The translations under genes were made by a program, and so were the position numbers. The notes beneath the pieces are model-generated. The model saw only the letters and a program-made list of their open reading frames with translations, did no database searches and was not told the origin of the DNA. Positions 5,541 through 53,437 of a DNA stretch of 64,000 bases are shown here, in pieces. Origin of the DNA: a virus. Location: IMG/VR virus record IMGVR_UViG_3300016725_000004; one strand, given 5' to 3'. Numbering within the stretch: the first letter of the stretch is position 1; the number at the start of each line of letters is the position of its first letter.

Positions 5541-6034
5541 ATAAGTTTAATTTTAGTAGATATAGGAGCAGCCAGTATATTACATTTTTCATCTAGTAAA
5601 AGAACCATAGTTTGAGAAGATCCGTAGTACATACCTTGATGTTTAACATCATTTATTTCATATTCAACTTTATCTCCAGTCTTAAATTTAAGACCAGTAT
5701 TTTCAATAATAGATCCAAGTACGCTTGAACATAAAGTATTTAGATTTAGTTGGGTTTTAAAAATTTTATCTGAGTTATAAATATATAAACATTGAACCAT
5801 ATCTTCTGATAAATCAGAGCTAAACCAAATAATTAACTTATCGAAATTCTTCTCTATTTCAAGAACAAAATCCCCCAAAATGTCAATAGTTAATATGTAG
5901 TTATCAGTGGATGCTTTAAATAATCTATGTTGAATTAAAACTTTATCTAATTTATCTTTAGATTTTTCTGATATTAAATCATTATCTTCTTTACTAATTT
6001 TGTATAATTCCTTAATTCTGTCTGCTATTGTCAT
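5537..6034 (-). CDS. hypothetical protein (165 aa)
   Basis: minus-strand ORF. Confidence 0.5.
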   Translation of the reverse strand: MTIADRIKELYKISKEDNDLISEKSKDKLDKVLIQHRLFKASTDNYILTIDILGDFVLEIEKNFDKLIIWFSSDLSEDMVQCLYIYNSDKIFKTQLNLNTLCSSVLGSIIENTGLKFKTGDKVEYEINDVKHQGMYYGSSQTMVLLLDEKCNILAAPISTKIKLI

Positions 6035-6305
6035 TATTTTTCCTTCGCAAAATTGTATCTATAACTAAATATATTATACCACATAAAAATATAATTAGCA
6101 AACCGTAAACGTAATAGTTTTTATCAACTCCAAGAGGTTCAAGTATGTATCCAATAATATTAAATAAAAATACAGTTGAAAAGGAGTTAACTATTGAATT
6201 TGCATGTTTTAGCTTTGTTGTTTCAAATAACATAGAACATAGTATAAATACAATTACCCCAATTATACTTGATATTATTTGTGGAATCTCAATTGTGATT
6301 GACAT
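6012..6305 (-). CDS. small membrane protein (97 aa)
   Basis: hydrophobic ORF. Confidence 0.4.
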   Translation of the reverse strand: MSITIEIPQIISSIIGVIVFILCSMLFETTKLKHANSIVNSFSTVFLFNIIGYILEPLGVDKNYYVYGLLIIFLCGIIYLVIDTILRRKNNDNSRQN

Positions 6306-7092: not shown

Positions 7093-7445
7093 TTTCTTCT
7101 CCTTTCATTTTTATATCGTAGATTACTCATTTTATCTGAATAATAATCGGGAAATGCACAAAATAATAAATGACATAAATAAATAAAAATAGTTATTGCA
7201 CCTACTATTAAATTTAATAAAGGAATAATAAAAAGTATATACCAAGTTACTTTAGCTGAAGTTAGTTTATATCCATATATTGTAATGAATAAAAATTTAA
7301 AATGGTCATCTACAATACACATATAACTATGGTAAATAAATAAGAGCAAACTTATAATACTTAGAGTATATGAAATTGTAAATATATAATCTAAATTTGA
7401 GAAAGTTTGTAGGGTACTAAGTATATATTCATAAATATTATACAT
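7089..7445 (-). CDS. paralogous family B small membrane protein
   Basis: shares motif FIIPLLNL...I.GAITIFIYLC with 8157/8480/8818 ORFs. Confidence 0.5.
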   Translation of the reverse strand: MYNIYEYILSTLQTFSNLDYIFTISYTLSIISLLLFIYHSYMCIVDDHFKFLFITIYGYKLTSAKVTWYILFIIPLLNLIVGAITIFIYLCHLLFCAFPDYYSDKMSNLRYKNERRRK

Positions 7446-24830: not shown

Positions 24831-26135
24831 TTACACTAAAACCTTTGAGTGCAAAATCTTTGTCATCACAGGATAAGGTTCATTAGAACTATCTCTGTCC
24901 CAATTTACTTTAACCTTTTTCCCAACAATGTTGAACACATTCAAATCCAACCAATCTTTAAAAACTGAGAATTGTTTAATATAAATTGTTCTACCAAACA
25001 TATCTTTACATACAATGTGGTCGATAATATATCGGCGCAGTTTAGTTGGCGTAACCTCTTGTCGAAGTTTATAATCCTCAACAATCATGGTTTCGTTTTT
25101 ACTAAACTGCTTTACTGTTTTATAAATTTTATCAGAGAAAAGTTTATTCTTTCGGATAATACAACTACCATATCTATCATTCATACGTTTAATAAACGAA
25201 TCCACATGTTCCTTGGAATCAAGCTTTTTATATGGAACACAGTAAATACGTTTAATTCCATGTTTAGTACATTTGTCAACAAGATGATTAATTCGTTCCA
25301 ATCGTTTAAGAGTTTTAGCTTCATCACCTTTCTTATACATATCTAGTATGACGAGATTACATTTTTTCAATTTTTCATCAGAACAAAGAACTTGGTCAAG
25401 CTTAGACAAAGCCCATTTATCATCAGAATTTATAGGCTGAAGTATAAAATCAAGAATAACAGGTGTATTTTTGGGAAGGAACTTTGCAATCTTTTTAAGA
25501 ACTTTAAATTTATCTGTATACTCATGGTTATCACTACGAATAACCGTAATATCTCCGTGCATAATACGAGCTTTAAATCTAAAACCCGTAACATTCATTT
25601 GTCCAATAACAGGGTAAGATTTTGTTTCTATTTCTTCTACATAAGTAGCCTTATTAAACTTAATTTTAAAATTAACAAAATCTTCCCCAAACAAACAAAC
25701 CTTGAGCAATTTGTAACCAAAACCAAAACGACAATTAGTAAACAAATCAAGATAGAACTTTGCTTCCTCACAAGAAATTTGCACATTACGAAAAACACGC
25801 TTAATAAGATCCATAGATGGATTTTTTTCTATCAGATCAAGAATGGAATTAAATCTTGATTCAATTTGTTTATCAAAATTAAAAGAAATATTGTCGCTAA
25901 CTTCAAACCAACTAATAGGATGCAAATCATTTTTAAAGTCAGTTGAAAAAAAGTATTTAGTGTTAACCGTATTACACGTTGGAATAGTATTATTCCAGAT
26001 AAGTGAAAATAACAATTTTAACTGTTCATTCTTCTTATTTTTTTTCAAAATAGATTTACACTCTGCAATTGAAATCAATCTATATTGCATTTTTTGCATA
26101 AAACTTATAATATCTGCGGCAGAATTAAAGGTCAT
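24831..26135 (-). CDS. hypothetical protein (434 aa); weak ligase-like motifs, unverified
   Basis: VILDFILQP and GSCIIRK resemble ligase motifs III/IV but no KxDG motif I found. Confidence 0.4.
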   Translation of the reverse strand: MTFNSAADIISFMQKMQYRLISIAECKSILKKNKKNEQLKLLFSLIWNNTIPTCNTVNTKYFFSTDFKNDLHPISWFEVSDNISFNFDKQIESRFNSILDLIEKNPSMDLIKRVFRNVQISCEEAKFYLDLFTNCRFGFGYKLLKVCLFGEDFVNFKIKFNKATYVEEIETKSYPVIGQMNVTGFRFKARIMHGDITVIRSDNHEYTDKFKVLKKIAKFLPKNTPVILDFILQPINSDDKWALSKLDQVLCSDEKLKKCNLVILDMYKKGDEAKTLKRLERINHLVDKCTKHGIKRIYCVPYKKLDSKEHVDSFIKRMNDRYGSCIIRKNKLFSDKIYKTVKQFSKNETMIVEDYKLRQEVTPTKLRRYIIDHIVCKDMFGRTIYIKQFSVFKDWLDLNVFNIVGKKVKVNWDRDSSNEPYPVMTKILHSKVLV

Positions 26136-26164: not shown

Positions 26165-26211
26165 AAATATAAAAAATGGGTAGATAAAACATTACTGTAA
26201 TATCTACCCAT
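26165..26211 (-). terminator. intrinsic terminator of GC-rich two-gene insert
   Basis: 10-bp stem atgggtagat/atctacccat followed on minus strand by TTTTTTATATTT. Confidence 0.55.
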
Positions 26212-26233
26212 TATAAATGGCGGCGGCAGACTG

Positions 26234-26905
26234 CTAGGACTGCGTTTCGTACACAGTCTTGATAAGCAGATGCTTGCCAAACTTGAAGATTTGAGCCGTA
26301 GCCCACAGGCTCTTGAGGGCGCAAATGCGAGTGTACAGGGACTTGAAGATTTCAAGTTCCCGCTCACAGTTGTCAAGATTGCCCTTTTTAGGGCACAGCA
26401 GCTTGAAGGAATCGTTCAGGGCGTTAAAGGCTTCGAGGTAATCGGAGGTTTCTTCTTCGTCCAAACATTCAAAAGCCTCGTCTTCGTCCGGAACTTCACT
26501 GCCGGTAGATTCCGCTTCCTGCTGCACTTCAACGATACGCTGGGCGATTGCCTCGGTATTCAGCATGTAGCTGTTTACCAAGCCTTCGAGGGCTTGTATG
26601 CGGTCTTCATCGACCAGAAAAACTTCGCCAAAGTTTGCTTGCGTGGCGTCATCCTCTGATTCTTCATCAGAAGGATGCACGATAAGGATGACTTCCACAG
26701 AGGATGCAGTTGGCAAAATGTTGCCAGTATCCAGGGCGGCGCAGATAACGCCACGAATGGCATTCTGCATGGGGTCAGAGACGTCGAGTTCTTTCAACGT
26801 AAGCTGGTCAGAGTCATCGGAAGATTCGGCGTCATCTTCGGAACCATCAAGTTCCTGACCGTCAACTTCCTGACCTTCTTCCTCAATTTCACGTTCATTT
26901 TTCAT
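26234..26905 (-). CDS. highly acidic protein (223 aa) in GC-rich insert
   Basis: AAGGAG RBS; D/E-rich throughout (EEEGQEVDGQELDGSEDDAESSDDSD...); GC-rich codons. Confidence 0.55.
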   Translation of the reverse strand: MKNEREIEEEGQEVDGQELDGSEDDAESSDDSDQLTLKELDVSDPMQNAIRGVICAALDTGNILPTASSVEVILIVHPSDEESEDDATQANFGEVFLVDEDRIQALEGLVNSYMLNTEAIAQRIVEVQQEAESTGSEVPDEDEAFECLDEEETSDYLEAFNALNDSFKLLCPKKGNLDNCERELEIFKSLYTRICALKSLWATAQIFKFGKHLLIKTVYETQS

Positions 26906-26928
26906 GATGGCTCCTTGAGTTTCAAGTT

Positions 26929-26951
26929 GGAGGGGGCAGTTAACCCCCTCC
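26929..26951 (-). promoter_or_regulatory. GC hairpin between the two insert genes
   Basis: ggaggggg-cagttaa-ccccctcc; no U-run, so probably an RNA stability/processing element rather than a terminator. Confidence 0.3.
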
Positions 26952-26986
26952 TATATAGGTGGCGCGGAGGTGACTAGTGGTTGGGA

Positions 26987-27769
26987 TTAATCCCAATCGT
27001 CTTCGTCATCATCCTTGCTGCCCTTCTTGCCTTTGCCCTTGCCCTTGGCAGCCTTGCCGCCCTTGGCAGACTTGCCGCCCTTCTTGCCCTTCTTGGGCTT
27101 TTCTTCTTCGTCATCGTCATCATCGGCGTCCCCGTCATCGTCATCGTCCTCGGAGTCGCCGTCATCATCATCGTCATCGTCCCCGTCATCGTCATCGGAG
27201 TCGCCGTCATCGTCATCGCCGTCATCATCATCGGAGTCGCTGTCATCGTCATCGTCATCGGCGTCCTCGTCCTCGTCCTCGTCTTCGTCCTTCTTCTTCT
27301 TGGCGGCCTTGGCGGGCTTCTTCTTGGCCTTCTTGGAGCCACCGTCCTCGTCTGCGTCTTCGCCGCTCAGTACAGCAGCGTCTTCAGCGACCAGGAACAC
27401 AGCACCGTCTTCATTGGTGACGGCAACAAAGCCGGGCACAGGGCTTTCGGTCAGTTCGCCGGAGTCGTCAGTAATGCTGACAACGCGGGCCCGCGTGGTG
27501 ATAGTCACTTCGTTGCCCTCTTCGTAGCCACCTTCGGCGAAAACGGTGAGCAGGCCGTCATAGGGGAAAAGTTCCACGGTGGAAAGCTGCTTGCGCGGCT
27601 TGCGGTAGGAAATGAGAAGGCCGTTGTCGAGGATTTCCTTGATAGTGCCGGAAATGGTCTGGGGGACAGAAGCTTCGGCTTCAAGCGTATAGGTCTGCAC
27701 AGCAGCCTTCTTGGAAGCCTTCTTGTTGTCCTTCTTACCGCCCTTCTTGGAAGCTTTAACTTTAGCCAT
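26987..27769 (-). CDS. Lys-rich / poly-Asp low-complexity protein (260 aa)
   Basis: ATG at 27769 with AAGGAG RBS; KVKASKKGGKKDNKKASKK N-terminus, globular core, KKAKKKPAKAAKKKK, then about 70-residue Asp tract and KGKGKGKK tail. Confidence 0.55.
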   Translation of the reverse strand: MAKVKASKKGGKKDNKKASKKAAVQTYTLEAEASVPQTISGTIKEILDNGLLISYRKPRKQLSTVELFPYDGLLTVFAEGGYEEGNEVTITTRARVVSITDDSGELTESPVPGFVAVTNEDGAVFLVAEDAAVLSGEDADEDGGSKKAKKKPAKAAKKKKDEDEDEDEDADDDDDDSDSDDDDGDDDDGDSDDDDGDDDDDDDGDSEDDDDDGDADDDDDEEEKPKKGKKGGKSAKGGKAAKGKGKGKKGSKDDDEDDWD

Positions 27770-27904
27770 GATGGAACTCCTTTTCGCCGTATTGGCGTAA
27801 TATGTTGTTTGAGAGCAAAAACATCTTTGGCTCTCGTTCAAGTTCCAACTAATAAGTTGGACATTGTGGTGAACCAATGACAAGTAAATTTAAACTGTGT
27901 TTGC

Positions 27905-27933
27905 ATTATATGCTAAACCAAGTTAAATGTCAA
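27905..27933 (-). promoter_or_regulatory. consensus sigma70 promoter (TTGACA-N17-TATAAT) driving GC-rich insert
   Basis: minus-strand -35 at 27928-27933, -10 at 27905-27910. Confidence 0.55.
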
Positions 27934-28069
27934 GAACTTTTTTCCCGAATTTTTAACTTTTTTGGAACTCCCACGTTTTCAATTGTGGCGGGCGGGCACA
28001 CAAATTTGAAAGTTTCCTCGGTATTTGCTTGCGCAAAGTGGTAAACTTACAACCTGCGTTCCAAAAAAG

Positions 28070-28240
28070 TTAATCAATTACGTTCTGACACTTAAACTCA
28101 AAGCGCAATGCTGTTTTAAATGACTTCAATGTCTTCGACATGCCCATACGTTTTCTGGACTTTTTACATTTGCAATGTTTTTTGTCCATCTTGTCGTAGT
28201 TCACGTCACTAAGTTTGTGAATACCAACATAGGGTTTCAT
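28070..28240 (-). CDS. small basic protein (about 56 aa)
   Basis: MKPYVGIHKL...CKCKKSRKRMGMSK; AAGGAAAAAAC RBS; hairpin just upstream. Confidence 0.35.
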   Translation of the reverse strand: MKPYVGIHKLSDVNYDKMDKKHCKCKKSRKRMGMSKTLKSFKTALRFEFKCQNVID

Positions 28241-28439
28241 GTTTTTTCCTTGGTTGAGGTTTAACTCAACCAACTTCAAACTTGAGCATTTCGACCTCCT
28301 ATGTTTGAAGGTGTAGCACCCAATAAGTAATGAGTGCAGTAAATACAACATTGTGTGACAAACTATATATCACAACTGCCACAAGAGCAATTGATATTTT
28401 ATCTTTCATTTTATCCTCCAACTTAGAGGATTTGGTTAT

Positions 28440-28838
28440 TTACAAATCATCATCGTCATCATCGTCATCTTCAGTATAACCAAAAATGTCTTTTTCATAG
28501 TTGTGAATACCTTCTGAAGATTCTAAAATCTTCGGAGTAGGAAATTCAGGCATAGCATCACCAAGCGCAATGTCACAACAAATGACAGGGTTGACCTTCC
28601 AGCTATGCTGAATCAGCGCAGCTTTTACTTCACTGAGAGTAGCCGGAGTGAGGTCACAGGAATGAATATTGAATGTGCAGTTTTGTTCCGGACTATACAC
28701 TGTGGTTTCACCACTGCCATGCATTCTGATAACTTGAACGACACACTCTTTATCAAAAGCTTCTTCAACACTAGAAACGTAAGATACTTCGCCATTGGTA
28801 GAATCATCATACACTGTAACCAAGCTGCCAACTTTCAT
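28440..28838 (-). CDS. family E protein with poly-Asp C-terminal tail (132 aa)
   Basis: MKVGSLVTVYDD...EDDDDDDDDL; paralog of 36712-37212. Confidence 0.55.
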   Translation of the reverse strand: MKVGSLVTVYDDSTNGEVSYVSSVEEAFDKECVVQVIRMHGSGETTVYSPEQNCTFNIHSCDLTPATLSEVKAALIQHSWKVNPVICCDIALGDAMPEFPTPKILESSEGIHNYEKDIFGYTEDDDDDDDDL

Positions 28839-29995: not shown

Positions 29996-30769
29996 TTACA
30001 TAGATTCAACAACTTTTTGCAGTTTTTCAACTGCATCAATAAAAGATTGTTTATCATTTTTTGACAATTTATTTCTTGTTTTGTGTATCTTACCTGAAAT
30101 TGACATTTTCAAATCTACAGTAAGAATATTTAATTTTTCTAAAAACTTAGCAATTGTAAGATTTTTACAGGCATTATCTTCACAGATTTTATCTGAATTT
30201 AATTCATTACACAGATCTGCATACATACGCTTTTGCATAATTTCATCTTTATCATTCCTAGCAATTTTCAACAAACGTTCCCGTGTCATTTCTGGTTTAT
30301 TTCTGGCATCATCAAGAATGTCTTGAGGAAGTTTATTAATCTTTAAAATTTCACTCACGGTACTCTTTGATTTGTGAAGTAATCTTGCAAGTGCATCATT
30401 AGAACATTGCTTTTGTTCTTTAAGAAACAAAAGTGATTCTGATAATTCAACTGCTGTTAAATCAGAACGCAAACAATTTTCAATTAAAGCCAAAGATAGT
30501 GCATAACCACCAATAAATGTAGCAGAAACAGTTACTCTCTTCAAGAGATTAAGGGCATGGACAAGACGTTCACCAGAAAGAAGAACGAGACGTTTATTAC
30601 AATAAGTAAAAACAATACTTTTATGTAAATCTTCATCTTTAATATTTTTAGCAAGTGCTATAACTTCATCCTCAGTGAAATATTCACTTGAATGTTTTTT
30701 GCTGGAAAGCAAATCTTTAATATTAAGTAAATATTCTTTACCATTCTCAAATTCAATTGTATTTTTCAT
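29996..30769 (-). CDS. ParB-like DNA-binding/nuclease-domain protein (257 aa)
   Basis: VLLSGERLVHAL and LIENCLRSDLTAVELSESL resemble ParB box (GERR..A / EN..R.DL...E). Confidence 0.45.
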   Translation of the reverse strand: MKNTIEFENGKEYLLNIKDLLSSKKHSSEYFTEDEVIALAKNIKDEDLHKSIVFTYCNKRLVLLSGERLVHALNLLKRVTVSATFIGGYALSLALIENCLRSDLTAVELSESLLFLKEQKQCSNDALARLLHKSKSTVSEILKINKLPQDILDDARNKPEMTRERLLKIARNDKDEIMQKRMYADLCNELNSDKICEDNACKNLTIAKFLEKLNILTVDLKMSISGKIHKTRNKLSKNDKQSFIDAVEKLQKVVESM

Positions 30770-30829: not shown

Positions 30830-32092
30830 TTAGTCGAGGCGACCACGAAGCTGACTGATAGCAGACAGGCAAGCATTCCGGTCAGCCTCATGCTGCATAT
30901 TGCAGCCAAACCCGAAAATCAAGTTCATGTCGTCAAACTTGGTTTGGGTAAGAAGGGCATACAGAGGCTTTTCTACCTCCGTAAGCTTTACGGGGGAGGT
31001 TGCACCTTCATGAGCAAGCAGAGCGGTTTCAACCGTATTCAGCACTTCCTTTATGTGCTCAGACTGCTGCTGATTTTTCATGTTGCCTTGGACGCCGAAA
31101 AACATGGCGGCAGCGTTGGGATCCTGCTGCAAAGTACGGCTGTGAAGCAGAGCCTTGAAGGTTGCTTCAAATTCAGGGTCAGGCATTTCCTGCGTCATGC
31201 AGTTGCCGCCGCATGCACAAGTATGCGGCTTGTCCACAGATATAGGTGAAGGAATGGCAGGAACATCTTCGGCAGCAGTTGCCATGCGAACATACTGCCC
31301 GAAGTTGACCAAGTGTTCGCAGTCAATAACTGCGACATCCTTGTAGGAACGGGCCAGCATGGCTTCTGTAAGCCGGGCGCGGGGCGTCTGCTTGACGATT
31401 ATGCCCACGCAGTATTGCGGCGCAGGAAGTTTGTCACCAAGCTGCTTCAACAAGCAGCAAACCGCGTTAATGTCCTGGCTGTTGAATGGGGCCAGCATGC
31501 GCGGCTCAATCAAAAGCGTGACTTCGCGCAAATTGACATTTTCGCCCTTCAAGGACTTGGCGGTGAAGTCGCCGGACTGAATGCGGGCGGTGAGTTCAGA
31601 AGTAATGGGAGATTCAACGATAAGAGTTTTGCATTCGATGGTTTTCATGGTTTTGCCTTTTGGTGGAGTTTTGGGTTTAAGTTCATCAGGAAGATGAACG
31701 CCTTCTGCTTCCAATTCTTCCTGAGCCTTGATAATGTTGGTCAAGATTTTTTCCAAGGTGGAAAAATCTTTCACTGCGTACCTGCGGGAAAACTTTTTGC
31801 GCATTTTGTTAGTAAGTTTTCCCACAGTGGCCCTTTCCAAAATAAAGCCCACTGAAAATTCAAGTTGATAGACCGGTGAAGAATCCTCAAGAAGAAAGGA
31901 ACCCGAAATGCCGGGTTCAGGAAAAAGCGGTGAAGAGCCAAAAATACTTTCACCGACCAGCAAGTTTACCGTGTGGGAATTTGGAAACAATTCAGTCAAT
32001 TTTTCAAGGGAAGTGTTTGCTTGAACTTGTTTCAAGTTGACCGGATTGCTATCCAAGGGATTGAGTACAAAGACGCGGCATGCAATTTTCAT
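30830..32092 (-). CDS. hypothetical protein (420 aa), GC about 50%
   Basis: long ORF with GC-rich codon usage unlike AT-rich regions. Confidence 0.55.
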   Translation of the reverse strand: MKIACRVFVLNPLDSNPVNLKQVQANTSLEKLTELFPNSHTVNLLVGESIFGSSPLFPEPGISGSFLLEDSSPVYQLEFSVGFILERATVGKLTNKMRKKFSRRYAVKDFSTLEKILTNIIKAQEELEAEGVHLPDELKPKTPPKGKTMKTIECKTLIVESPITSELTARIQSGDFTAKSLKGENVNLREVTLLIEPRMLAPFNSQDINAVCCLLKQLGDKLPAPQYCVGIIVKQTPRARLTEAMLARSYKDVAVIDCEHLVNFGQYVRMATAAEDVPAIPSPISVDKPHTCACGGNCMTQEMPDPEFEATFKALLHSRTLQQDPNAAAMFFGVQGNMKNQQQSEHIKEVLNTVETALLAHEGATSPVKLTEVEKPLYALLTQTKFDDMNLIFGFGCNMQHEADRNACLSAISQLRGRLD

Positions 32093-32423: not shown

Positions 32424-32449
32424 AATTCCCCCTTTCAAAGCATGGTATA

Positions 32450-32478
32450 TTATACCATGCTTTGAAAAGAAAGTCAAT
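32450..32478 (-). promoter_or_regulatory. consensus sigma70 promoter within 35-bp palindrome
   Basis: TTGACT-N17-TgGTATAAT; palindrome tttcaaagcatggtatattataccatgctttgaaa (32434-32468). Confidence 0.55.
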
Positions 32479-33024: not shown

Positions 33025-33052
33025 AAATTACCCCTTTTTCAAAGTATGGTAT

Positions 33053-33081
33053 ATTATACCATACTTTGAAAAGAATGTCAA
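33053..33081 (-). promoter_or_regulatory. consensus sigma70 promoter within 35-bp palindrome
   Basis: TTGACA-N17-TgGTATAAT; palindrome tttcaaagtatggtatattataccatactttgaaa (33037-33071). Confidence 0.55.
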
Positions 33082-37573: not shown

Positions 37574-37602
37574 ATTATACCATAAATAGCCGTTGGTGTC
37601 AA
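37574..37602 (-). promoter_or_regulatory. consensus sigma70 promoter (TTGACA-N17-TgGTATAAT)
   Basis: -35 at 37597-37602, -10 at 37574-37579; core palindrome ctatggtatattataccatag. Confidence 0.55.
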
Positions 37603-39671: not shown

Positions 39672-39700
39672 ATTATATCATAATATATGGTAATTGTCAA
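39672..39700 (-). promoter_or_regulatory. consensus sigma70 promoter (TTGACA-N17-TATAAT)
   Basis: -35 at 39695-39700, -10 at 39672-39677; tggtatattatatca core. Confidence 0.55.
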
Positions 39701-53361: not shown

Positions 53362-53437
53362 TGGTGGGCCTGTCCAGATTCGAACTGGAAGTCCAAGACT
53401 TAGAAGGTCTTTGCATTATCCGTTATGCTACAGGCCC
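53362..53437 (-). tRNA. tRNA-Arg (anticodon UCU)
   Basis: 76-nt cloverleaf GGGCCTG-TA-GCAT-AACGGATA-ATGC-A-AAGAC-CTTCTAA-GTCTT-GGACT-TCCAG-TTCGAAT-CTGGA-CAGGCCC-A-CCA; all four stems perfectly paired, U33, TTCGAAT T-loop, encoded CCA. Confidence 0.85.

Follow-up and report, generated by a model that had tools for sequence, protein, structure and literature searches.

Why should two adjacent, strongly charged genes be GC-rich within an AT-rich phage genome, and are they foreign to it? We examined this question for a 64,000-nt stretch of the IMG/VR virus record IMGVR_UViG_3300016725_000004 (the window, numbered from its first letter), in which a preliminary description, made from the letters alone, had singled out a GC-rich block at 26165-27935 as a recently acquired, promoter-to-terminator insert encoding candidate DNA-mimic or chromatin-like proteins. 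The two open reading frames (ORFs) of the block were found exactly at the coordinates given there, both on the minus strand, g1 at 26987..27769 (260 aa) and g2 at 26234..26905 (223 aa), with the high GC content and the charge architecture that had been described for them. The reading that we favour, and hold tentatively, is that the block forms an operon complete in itself and conserved across an uncultivated clade of jumbo phages, with distant members in Xanthomonas jumbo phages; that it is built for very high, probably immediate-early expression; and that g1 may be an abundant nucleic-acid-associated polyampholyte with g2 as its acidic partner.

Composition and conservation of the block

The block has a GC content of 51.2% (g1, 57.0%; g2, 49.6%). 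This is lower than the 55-60% that had been estimated by eye, but the deviation from the flanking DNA that the estimate was meant to convey is very large (27.5% GC for positions 1-26000 and 28.7% for 40001-64000). A sliding GC profile rose from about 0.29 to 0.51-0.60 across 26.5-27.5 kb and then came down again, and the GC content at third codon positions (GC3) was 0.69 for g1 and 0.55 for g2, compared with 0.10-0.20 for nearly all other genes of the window; the sliding profile and the codon comparison with other genes (below), which the preliminary description had proposed as a check on its claim, gave a strong deviation. The high GC did not extend beyond the coding sequences of g1 and g2 and their intergenic hairpin, and the promoter (30%), the 5' untranslated region or leader (38%) and the downstream spacer span 30-38%. 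Since the same DNA was present, 100% identical, in assemblies of three other samples (Logan SRR3732730, JGI 2166559024 and ENA ERZ27250307), the block is not an assembly artefact, and a chimera was ruled out as its origin. The source contig is at least 233 kb long, and from this length and its phage-type relatives we infer that the source is best read as an uncultivated jumbo phage.

A word-indexed search with the g1 core gave a single match, P0001 (61% identity), on the 6.4-kb JGI contig L001. HMMER, applied exhaustively to 1.84 billion representatives, brought in a small family of proteins of 115-225 aa (E 1e-12 to 1e-4), to which further members were added by profile search. All members begin with MAK(K), and the segments I-x-G-x-I/V...Y-K-K-P-R-K-S-K and G-F-V-x-V-x-D-E-x-G...V are found family-wide; many members also have tails in which Lys/Arg runs (including KKRGRPGRP and PKKRGRKP) alternate with acidic runs, with ends such as DDWD (DDNDDWD), DEDWN (DEDEDWN), DDWEEEED (NDDWEEEED) and EEDWGEYY. 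The long acidic tract of the window g1 is not conserved (the orthologues have 0-20 acidic residues there), and the 63-residue poly-Asp tract is a lineage-specific elaboration and not a family-defining part; what the members conserve is the beta-rich core and, in many of them, the mixed-charge tail ending in D-D-W. One member is from a cultured phage, XYR92827.1 of the Xanthomonas jumbo phage PhiXhv-12 (146 aa, with a lysine-rich tail), and is encoded near DNA ligase and topoisomerase genes; Xanthomonas phages of the PhiXhv-12 type were reported as forming a new lineage, in a paper that gives no functional detail on the g1 homologue (PMC13340338).

No cellular homologue of g1 or g2 was found in protein sets of 5.8 billion and 1.84 billion entries or in the 185,579 bacterial and archaeal reference genomes, and the g1 family appears to be phage-only; a search for the donor lineage, as had been suggested, returned phage relatives and no cellular donor. 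The gene order g1, an acidic protein of 190-262 aa, a 410-426-aa homologue of g3 (the gene downstream of g2), then NrdD or ThyX, is shared by three related contigs, L005, L007 and L010. The 190-aa protein of L005 is homologous to g2 (E = 1e-6 over its full length), the g2 counterparts of L007 and L010 were assigned by position and the motif DP-x-Q/E only, and a further g2 homologue, P0003 (81% identity), lies on another contig between a 259-aa gene upstream and a gene of >376 aa downstream. The relatives have GC contents of 29% (L005), 35% (L010), 43% (L001) and 46% (L007), and the family spans phages of 29-56% GC. Scans of IMG/VR, JGI metagenomes and GTDB genomes with single proteins and with a four-member alignment gave no further loci; the block compared with 50,697 phage genomes gave poly-Asp low-complexity matches only, in unrelated jumbo phages; and the flanking 11 kb had no DNA-level match among cultured phage genomes. 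The recent horizontal acquisition that had been deduced from the composition is not supported: g1-g2-g3 have syntenic homologues in related phages, synteny being among the counter-evidence that the preliminary description had itself named, and a raised g1 GC3 recurs in every relative.

Some further observations concern the loci of the relatives. Two independent contigs, L005 (1-162) and L006 (2-166), both break within an ORF upstream of a tailless g1 homologue; the codons of this ORF, which ends ...DDDDDWDEEETPKKRGRKSEVEDDEDDDDDDDFDFSD, are GC-rich within a genome of 29% GC, and it may be a tandem paralogue bearing the charged tail. Within L001 (5190-6369) the similarity of the g1 homologue ends after ...ESPVPG and convergent ORFs follow, the ORF at 5675-6190 (minus strand) resembling, by eye only, the C-terminal part of a terminase large subunit; either the assembly is chimeric here or the rearrangement is real. 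In PhiXhv-12 (L009, 6527-6949 and 9720-10403) the g1 homologue is followed by a gene that codes for a protein of 140 aa with a Gly-Gly end and lies two genes before a "thiamine biosynthesis protein"; these may be a ubiquitin-like/E1-like pair.

Codon usage and the origin of the high GC content

Codon usage in g1 plus g2 was compared with that of twelve background genes: the AAG/AAA counts were 41/6 versus 68/265, the GAC/GAT counts 49/32 versus 30/211, and GGC made up 29 of 38 Gly codons versus 13 of 177. AGA, TTA, CTA and ACA did not occur in g1 and g2, and ATA occurred once. The g1 GC3 of 0.69 compares with about 0.15 for its neighbours in the window, and the corresponding values were 0.68 versus 0.36-0.51 in L001, 0.71 versus 0.41-0.62 in L007, 0.50 versus 0.19-0.31 in L010, and 0.27 versus 0.09-0.21 for the other genes in L005, where g2 was also at 0.27; the homologue in PhiXhv-12 had a GC3 of 0.82, tied for highest. 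The neighbours thus lie around 0.44 in L001, 0.50 in L007, 0.25 in L010 and 0.14 in L005. In all five relatives, whatever the genome GC, g1 was the local GC3 maximum or tied for it. The g1 orthologues gave AAG/AAA counts of 34/3, 14/3, 13/1 and 22/5, with GAA/GAG counts of 17/6, 8/0, 14/4 and 18/7, and the adjoining g3 genes had the opposite lysine preference. Since AAG far exceeds AAA and yet GAA exceeds GAG, the pattern is not that of uniform GC pressure from a foreign donor, which would raise GAG too.

Phage tRNAs for sense codons other than Met all decode A-ending codons in the window, L010 and L007. There is one in the window, Arg-TCT (53362-53437, minus strand); L010 has Lys-TTT and Ile-TAT (7260-7431) directly upstream of the g1 promoter; and L007 (11711-15603) has Leu-TAG, Leu-TAA, Ser-TGA, Thr-TGT, Lys-TTT and Gln-TTG, plus a tRNA-Met. 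The codons decoded by the phage tRNAs are those avoided in g1 and g2. The simplest reading of these sequences is that g1, and here also g2, may have been selected for efficient translation by the host tRNA pool; codons read by host tRNAs would serve very high expression, or expression before the phage tRNAs build up, or both. A further gain from AAG in long runs of lysine may be that poly(A) tracks, and slippage on them, are avoided. The GC-richness would then arise mainly from codon-level selection for host tRNA reading, to which allele exchange with higher-GC phages may add.

Horizontal acquisition could instead account for the island, in a strong form as a cassette from a GC-rich cellular donor, or in a weak form as allele replacement from a higher-GC related phage; we consider this possible but, on the whole, doubtful. 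The composition and codon usage of the block are strongly unlike those of the flanks, and the block falls within a wider stretch of about 13.5 kb (approximately 26.2-39.7 kb) of intermediate GC (37%, versus 27.5-28.7% outside; GC3 of 0.2-0.5), which is 75-85% identical to L001 (43% GC) and within which a ParB-like gene (29996-30769) with a native GC3 of 0.17 suggests mosaicism. Because of this 37% GC content, the identity to the higher-GC L001 and the embedded native ParB-like gene, mosaic exchange among related phages of differing GC is likely to contribute to the composition of the 26.2-39.7 kb stretch. The strong form is essentially refuted unless a cellular homologue should turn up, as the protein and genome searches returned none, the synteny is clade-wide, the promoter type is native to the phage, and both the flanks and the leader are rich in AT; and against either form as the sole cause stand the local GC3 maximum of g1 in every relative, including those of 43-56% GC, and the retained excess of GAA over GAG. 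Neither codon selection nor phage-phage exchange is the same thing as acquisition from a GC-rich cellular donor.

Expression signals, protein architecture and possible roles

The operon is preceded by a perfect sigma-70-type TTGACA-N17-TATAAT promoter at 27905..27933 (minus strand), as the preliminary description had reported; the match is 12 of 12, and the activity is predicted from the sequence. Six perfect sites of this kind occur in the window, all on the minus (coding) strand, where 0.05 would be expected by chance, and therefore the g1 promoter is of the phage's ordinary type and no mark of a foreign cassette. Both of its hexamers are kept in L001, and equivalent promoters precede the g1 homologues of L007 and L010. 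A non-coding conserved element lies 5' of the promoter (27936..28066, minus strand; >90% identical to L001, with the adjoining coding DNA at about 75%), and its promoter-proximal part, which is A-tract rich and UP-element-like, may have an UP-element role; the predicted fold of the element was no better than that of shuffles (z = -0.5), it had no Rfam match, and an Rfam scan of 25.5-33.5 kb found nothing. The 5' leader of about 130 nt (27770..27898, minus strand) is predicted to form three hairpins (RNA fold -30.3 kcal/mol, z = -2.6) and includes the Shine-Dalgarno sequence AAAGGAG (27777-27783); it is about 90% identical to L001, as are the 300 nt 5' of g1 overall (versus about 75% for coding DNA), and it compares with leaders of about 20-60 nt at other promoters of the window.

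A GC-rich 9-bp hairpin, GGAGGGGGU/GCCCCCUCC, without a T-run, is predicted between g1 and g2 (26929..26951, minus strand) and is a candidate partial terminator or RNA-stabilising element; a comparable GC hairpin lies 3' of the g1 homologue in L007 and L010, and also 3' of the upstream charged-tail ORF in L005. The hairpin TTGGGATTAATCCCAA is predicted over the g1 stop codon (26981..26996, minus strand), and the region with both hairpins, each of which had been pointed out from the letters, gave z = -3.9. No counterpart of the stop-codon hairpin was evident in L007 and L010 on a by-eye reading without folding; it is probably incidental, and was for this reason set aside as a regulatory element. 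The intrinsic terminator at 26165..26211 (minus strand), also as first described, has an 11-bp stem plus an inner stem followed by TTTTTT (U6), with z = -4.1 and none of 200 shuffles folding as well. The hexamers, the 17-nt spacing and the GC stem with its T-run are together those of a sigma-70 promoter/intrinsic terminator unit. The plan is repeated in L007 and L010, where a TTGACA/TATAAT or TATTAT promoter is followed by a hairpin leader, a strong Shine-Dalgarno sequence and g1, then by a GC-rich hairpin without a good T-run, g2 and another hairpin. High expression is suggested because of the consensus promoter, the A-tract, the structured leader, the strong Shine-Dalgarno sequence, the GC hairpin, the terminator, and codons that avoid AAA, ATA, TTA, CTA, ACA, CAA and AGA; the GC hairpin after g1 would attenuate read-through or stabilise the g1 message, leaving g1 in excess over g2.

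Two features were noted around the promoters of the window. The g1 promoter is without the palindrome TATGGTATAATATACCATA that overlaps several others, namely the consensus promoters at 32428-32477, 33032-33081, about 37574-37602 and about 39672-39700 (all minus strand); the palindrome is extended to TTTCAAAG..CTTTGAAA at two sites, two of the palindrome-promoter sites form a 50-nt direct repeat 604 nt apart, and it has the look of an operator that these promoters share, bound by a regulator. A conserved, small and very basic ORF of 56 aa (MKPYVGIHKLSDVNYDKMDKKHCKCKKSRKR...; 28070-28240, minus strand) lies immediately 5' of the g1 promoter, and 5' of that ORF is a mini-ORF of 7 codons, MLKFEVG, which has the Shine-Dalgarno sequence AGGAGG (28266-28300, minus strand). 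Both are kept in L001, gene callers left 27770-28440 empty in three assemblies, and the 56-aa ORF could represent a basic partner for acidic proteins, or a leader-peptide arrangement.

The g1 protein contains 37 K, 60 D and 23 E, with a net charge of -42. Residues 1-22 are K-rich (+9); the core (residues 23-140) includes YRKPRKQ, which may form a basic loop; the basic tract KKAKKKPAKAAKKKK lies between the core and the acidic tract; and the acidic tract (residues 161-223, nt 27101-27289) is followed by a KGK-rich tract (residues 226-252) and the C-terminal DDDEDDWD. The acidic tract, which had been noticed earlier but put at about 70 residues, is 63 residues long (44 D, 8 E, 5 G, 4 S and 2 A) and contains no basic residue (no K, R or H). 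Our guess is that the first half of the core could be a small SH3-like barrel. The RimP C-terminal SH3 domain (PF17384) matched four of ten family members, though not the window g1, at 13-18 bits, below the Pfam gathering threshold of 26.3, which is a hint of a small beta-barrel and not of family membership; PHROG 22271 (unknown function) likewise matched four of the ten members (best E = 1.8e-4) and not the window g1. The AlphaFold2 model of the acidic g2 protein (net charge -38) reached a pLDDT of 66; its acidic N-terminus is disordered, it further shows a small alpha/beta unit and a bundle of helices, and the only matches to it were generic helical bundles.

Scanned against Pfam (E <= 0.1), g1 and g2 yielded a single match, to DsbC_N and at chance level, and none to Ocr or ArdA; neither protein matched PHROGs or PADLOC, the latter modelling defence-system proteins and not anti-restriction proteins. 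For the g1 family, a profile search of PDB sequences found nothing, including no single-stranded-DNA-binding protein (SSB), and there was no Pfam HMG, AT-hook or linker-histone match; a nucleoplasmin-family profile did not match g1 or ten family members (E <= 1). Homology to T7 gp2.5 was considered and rejected (hhalign family profile probability 0.3%), and nothing relevant was found in the literature on jumbo-phage AT-hook proteins and lysine-rich acidic early proteins.

The closest documented functional precedent for g1 is, by analogy, Gp44 of the Bacillus phage SPO1, the product of a phage early (host-takeover) gene, in which a DNA-binding domain of 55 residues is followed by 67 disordered, acidic residues and then by a C-terminus that is also disordered; the acidic region binds the RNA polymerase beta and beta' subunits, and the authors of that work propose that it mimics single-stranded DNA (PMC8208478). 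The likeness is one of architecture only, a folded domain (DNA-binding in Gp44) followed by an acidic tract of at least 60 residues without basic residues (52 of 63 Asp/Glu at g1 161-223; 57% Asp/Glu at Gp44 56-122) and a further disordered C-terminal part. The g1 protein differs in that lysine blocks flank its acidic tract on either side, in its D-D-W tip, in having a folded part of about 120 residues that is net acidic, and in that its orthologues are often without the long acidic tract; a tblastn search with the g1 core against 50,697 phage records gave no match.

Other comparisons are likewise analogies. With the SSBs that have acidic tails (T7 gp2.5, E. coli SSB and T4 gp32) g1 shares a layout in which about 110-120 aa of beta-rich core lead, through a disordered linker, to an acidic tip bearing an aromatic residue; gp2.5 has EDDWADE and ends in DEDGDF, where g1 ends in DDDEDDWD, and gp2.5-type SSBs resemble g1 further in replication-module neighbours, high expression (for g1, expected from its signals) and an MAKK start. 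However, no OB fold is demonstrated for g1, and its lysine blocks are absent from SSBs. In composition and architecture only, the alternating basic and acidic blocks recall HMGA (AT-hooks and an acidic tail), HMGB1 (autoinhibition by an acidic tail), histone H1 (compare KKPAKAAKKKK of g1) and nucleoplasmin/NPM1, which like g1 have a beta-rich core with acidic and basic tracts after it. There is no homology to these chromatin polyampholytes, and the RGRP core of the HMGA AT-hook, indeed any GRP core, is absent from the window g1; it is present in the orthologue P0007 as KKRGRPGRPVRK, and a relaxed AT-hook, KRGRKP, occurs in P0004, in P0008 and in the L005 upstream ORF. T7 Ocr and ArdA are also strongly acidic products of early genes, but they are rigid, folded mimics of B-form DNA, whereas the acidic part of g1 is a low-complexity tract and g2 has no fold match.

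Our favoured reading, of an abundant nucleic-acid-associated polyampholyte with an acidic partner, is drawn from the DNA-metabolism neighbourhood (NrdD, ThyX, ligase-like, ParB-like, deaminase and methyltransferase genes in the window and relatives), the H1/AT-hook-like tracts, the acidic tract and aromatic tip, and the signals that suggest strong expression. The small beta-barrel core with YRKPRKQ and the lysine tracts would tether g1 to DNA, or possibly RNA; the poly-Asp tract and D-D-W tip would act as a flexible nucleic-acid mimic that folds back on the basic regions of g1 itself, or captures basic DNA-binding proteins of the host or phage; and g2, as an acidic helical protein, would be a co-expressed partner or chaperone of g1. 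Several points weigh against this proposal. With a net charge of -14 the core is acidic, as DNA-binding domains seldom are, and neither the PDB-sequence profile search nor the gp2.5 profile comparison linked it by fold or sequence to any DNA-binding family; AlphaFold2 of residues 1-157 from a two-sequence alignment gave no usable core model (pLDDT 41); and the canonical AT-hook is missing, as noted. Three members (P0005, P0006 and P0011) are tailless, and therefore the tail cannot carry the core function of the family. The abundance and timing of g1 and g2 are predictions from sequence signals throughout. As for the codons, a GC3 gap of 0.69 to 0.15 is larger than translational selection usually gives, and the surrounding 13.5 kb is also raised in GC and similar to a higher-GC relative, so that recombination between phages probably contributes.

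Other roles for g1 and g2 have to be weighed against the same evidence. An unlikely but reasonable one is a host-takeover or anti-defence DNA mimic, in which g1 through its poly-Asp tract, g2 through its acidic surface, or the two together would imitate DNA and sequester restriction enzymes, RNA polymerase, H-NS or similar proteins early in infection. The tract of 52 acidic and no basic residues, the net charge of g2, the consensus host-type promoter of the operon and the Gp44 precedent, with its DNA anchor and RNA polymerase-binding acidic region, all speak for it; but the family searches (Pfam, including Ocr and ArdA, PHROGs and PDB) and the PADLOC scan were empty, the long tract is not conserved among orthologues, the g2 model has only generic matches, and the genes lie in a replication/nucleotide-metabolism neighbourhood and not at a genome end with other takeover genes. 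It is still less probable that g1 and g2 form a phage "chromatin-like" system, an independently evolved counterpart of HMG/nucleoplasmin, in which g1, a blocky polyampholyte produced from host-optimised codons in very large amounts as soon as infection begins, would coat or condense AT-rich phage DNA (e.g., in a replication compartment or condensate), its poly-Asp tract and D-D-W tip serving as DNA mimic or recruitment hub and g2 as acidic chaperone. The DNA-mimic or chromatin-like idea of the preliminary description thus survives as one of several analogies, and a specific anti-restriction role has no support.

Signals of very high expression and low-complexity charged tracts would also suit a virion-associated protein, whether part of the scaffold or core or an internal protein that enters the head together with the DNA, its charge blocks organising or neutralising that DNA, and poly-Asp ORFs occur in cultured jumbo phages such as PaBG and the Erwinia phages, a match of low complexity only; with no structural gene nearby in the window or any relative, and no PHROG structural match, we regard this as improbable. 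We give equally little credence to an RNA- or ribosome-associated factor with an SH3-/Sm-like barrel (as in RimP and ribosomal proteins) and an acidic aromatic tail that recruits translation or RNA-processing partners. The RimP matches and the conserved structured leader, which could allow autoregulation, favour it, T4 gp32 being an autoregulated protein with which the g1 leader may be compared; but those matches lie below the 26.3-bit cut-off, the genomic context is one of DNA metabolism, and no ribosomal-protein family was matched.

Neighbouring genes and significance of the locus

All gene-like ORFs of the window are on the minus strand, and the recognisable genes are NrdD (from precomputed Pfam matches), an adenylosuccinate-synthetase-like gene, an RlaP-like nucleotidyltransferase, the ParB-like gene, phosphohydrolases and the tRNA-Arg(TCT). 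The conserved downstream neighbour g3 (24831..26135, minus strand; 434 aa), which was aligned with its homologues in L005, L007 and L010, has native AT-rich codon usage (GC3 0.24). One member of the g3 family matched PF01068 (E = 1e-4) and a profile search of PDB sequences gave nothing; judged by its sequence relatives, g3 appears to be a divergent ATP-dependent DNA-ligase-like protein. The CIDGER of L007 was read by eye as ligase motif I (KxDGxR), with a lysine at that position only in L005, and g3 may be an inactive ligase-fold protein. A second GC outlier is the 420-aa ORF at 30830-32092 (minus strand; 48.5% GC, GC3 0.53), of which the DNA is 85% identical to L001 1313-2572 and which has no Pfam or PHROG match.

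New here are a conserved operon, confined to phages and uncharacterised, whose codon contrast is unusually sharp and parallels phage tRNA content, and the definition of a phage-only protein family that has a beta-rich core, YKKPRKSK and GFVxV motifs, and is with or without a mixed-charge D-D-W tail. The locus offers a good target for experiments, not a new mechanism already demonstrated, and the culturable Xanthomonas jumbo-phage member makes experiments feasible. Should g1 prove to organise DNA as an abundant protein, or to mimic it flexibly, a new type would join the few phage nucleoid/takeover proteins. More generally, a stretch that stands out strikingly by its composition in a phage genome is not necessarily foreign: the GC island examined here tracks one conserved gene family across phages of 29-56% GC and mirrors the phage tRNA set, which makes it a concrete, testable case of host-tRNA-dependent and phage-tRNA-dependent genes being partitioned within one genome.

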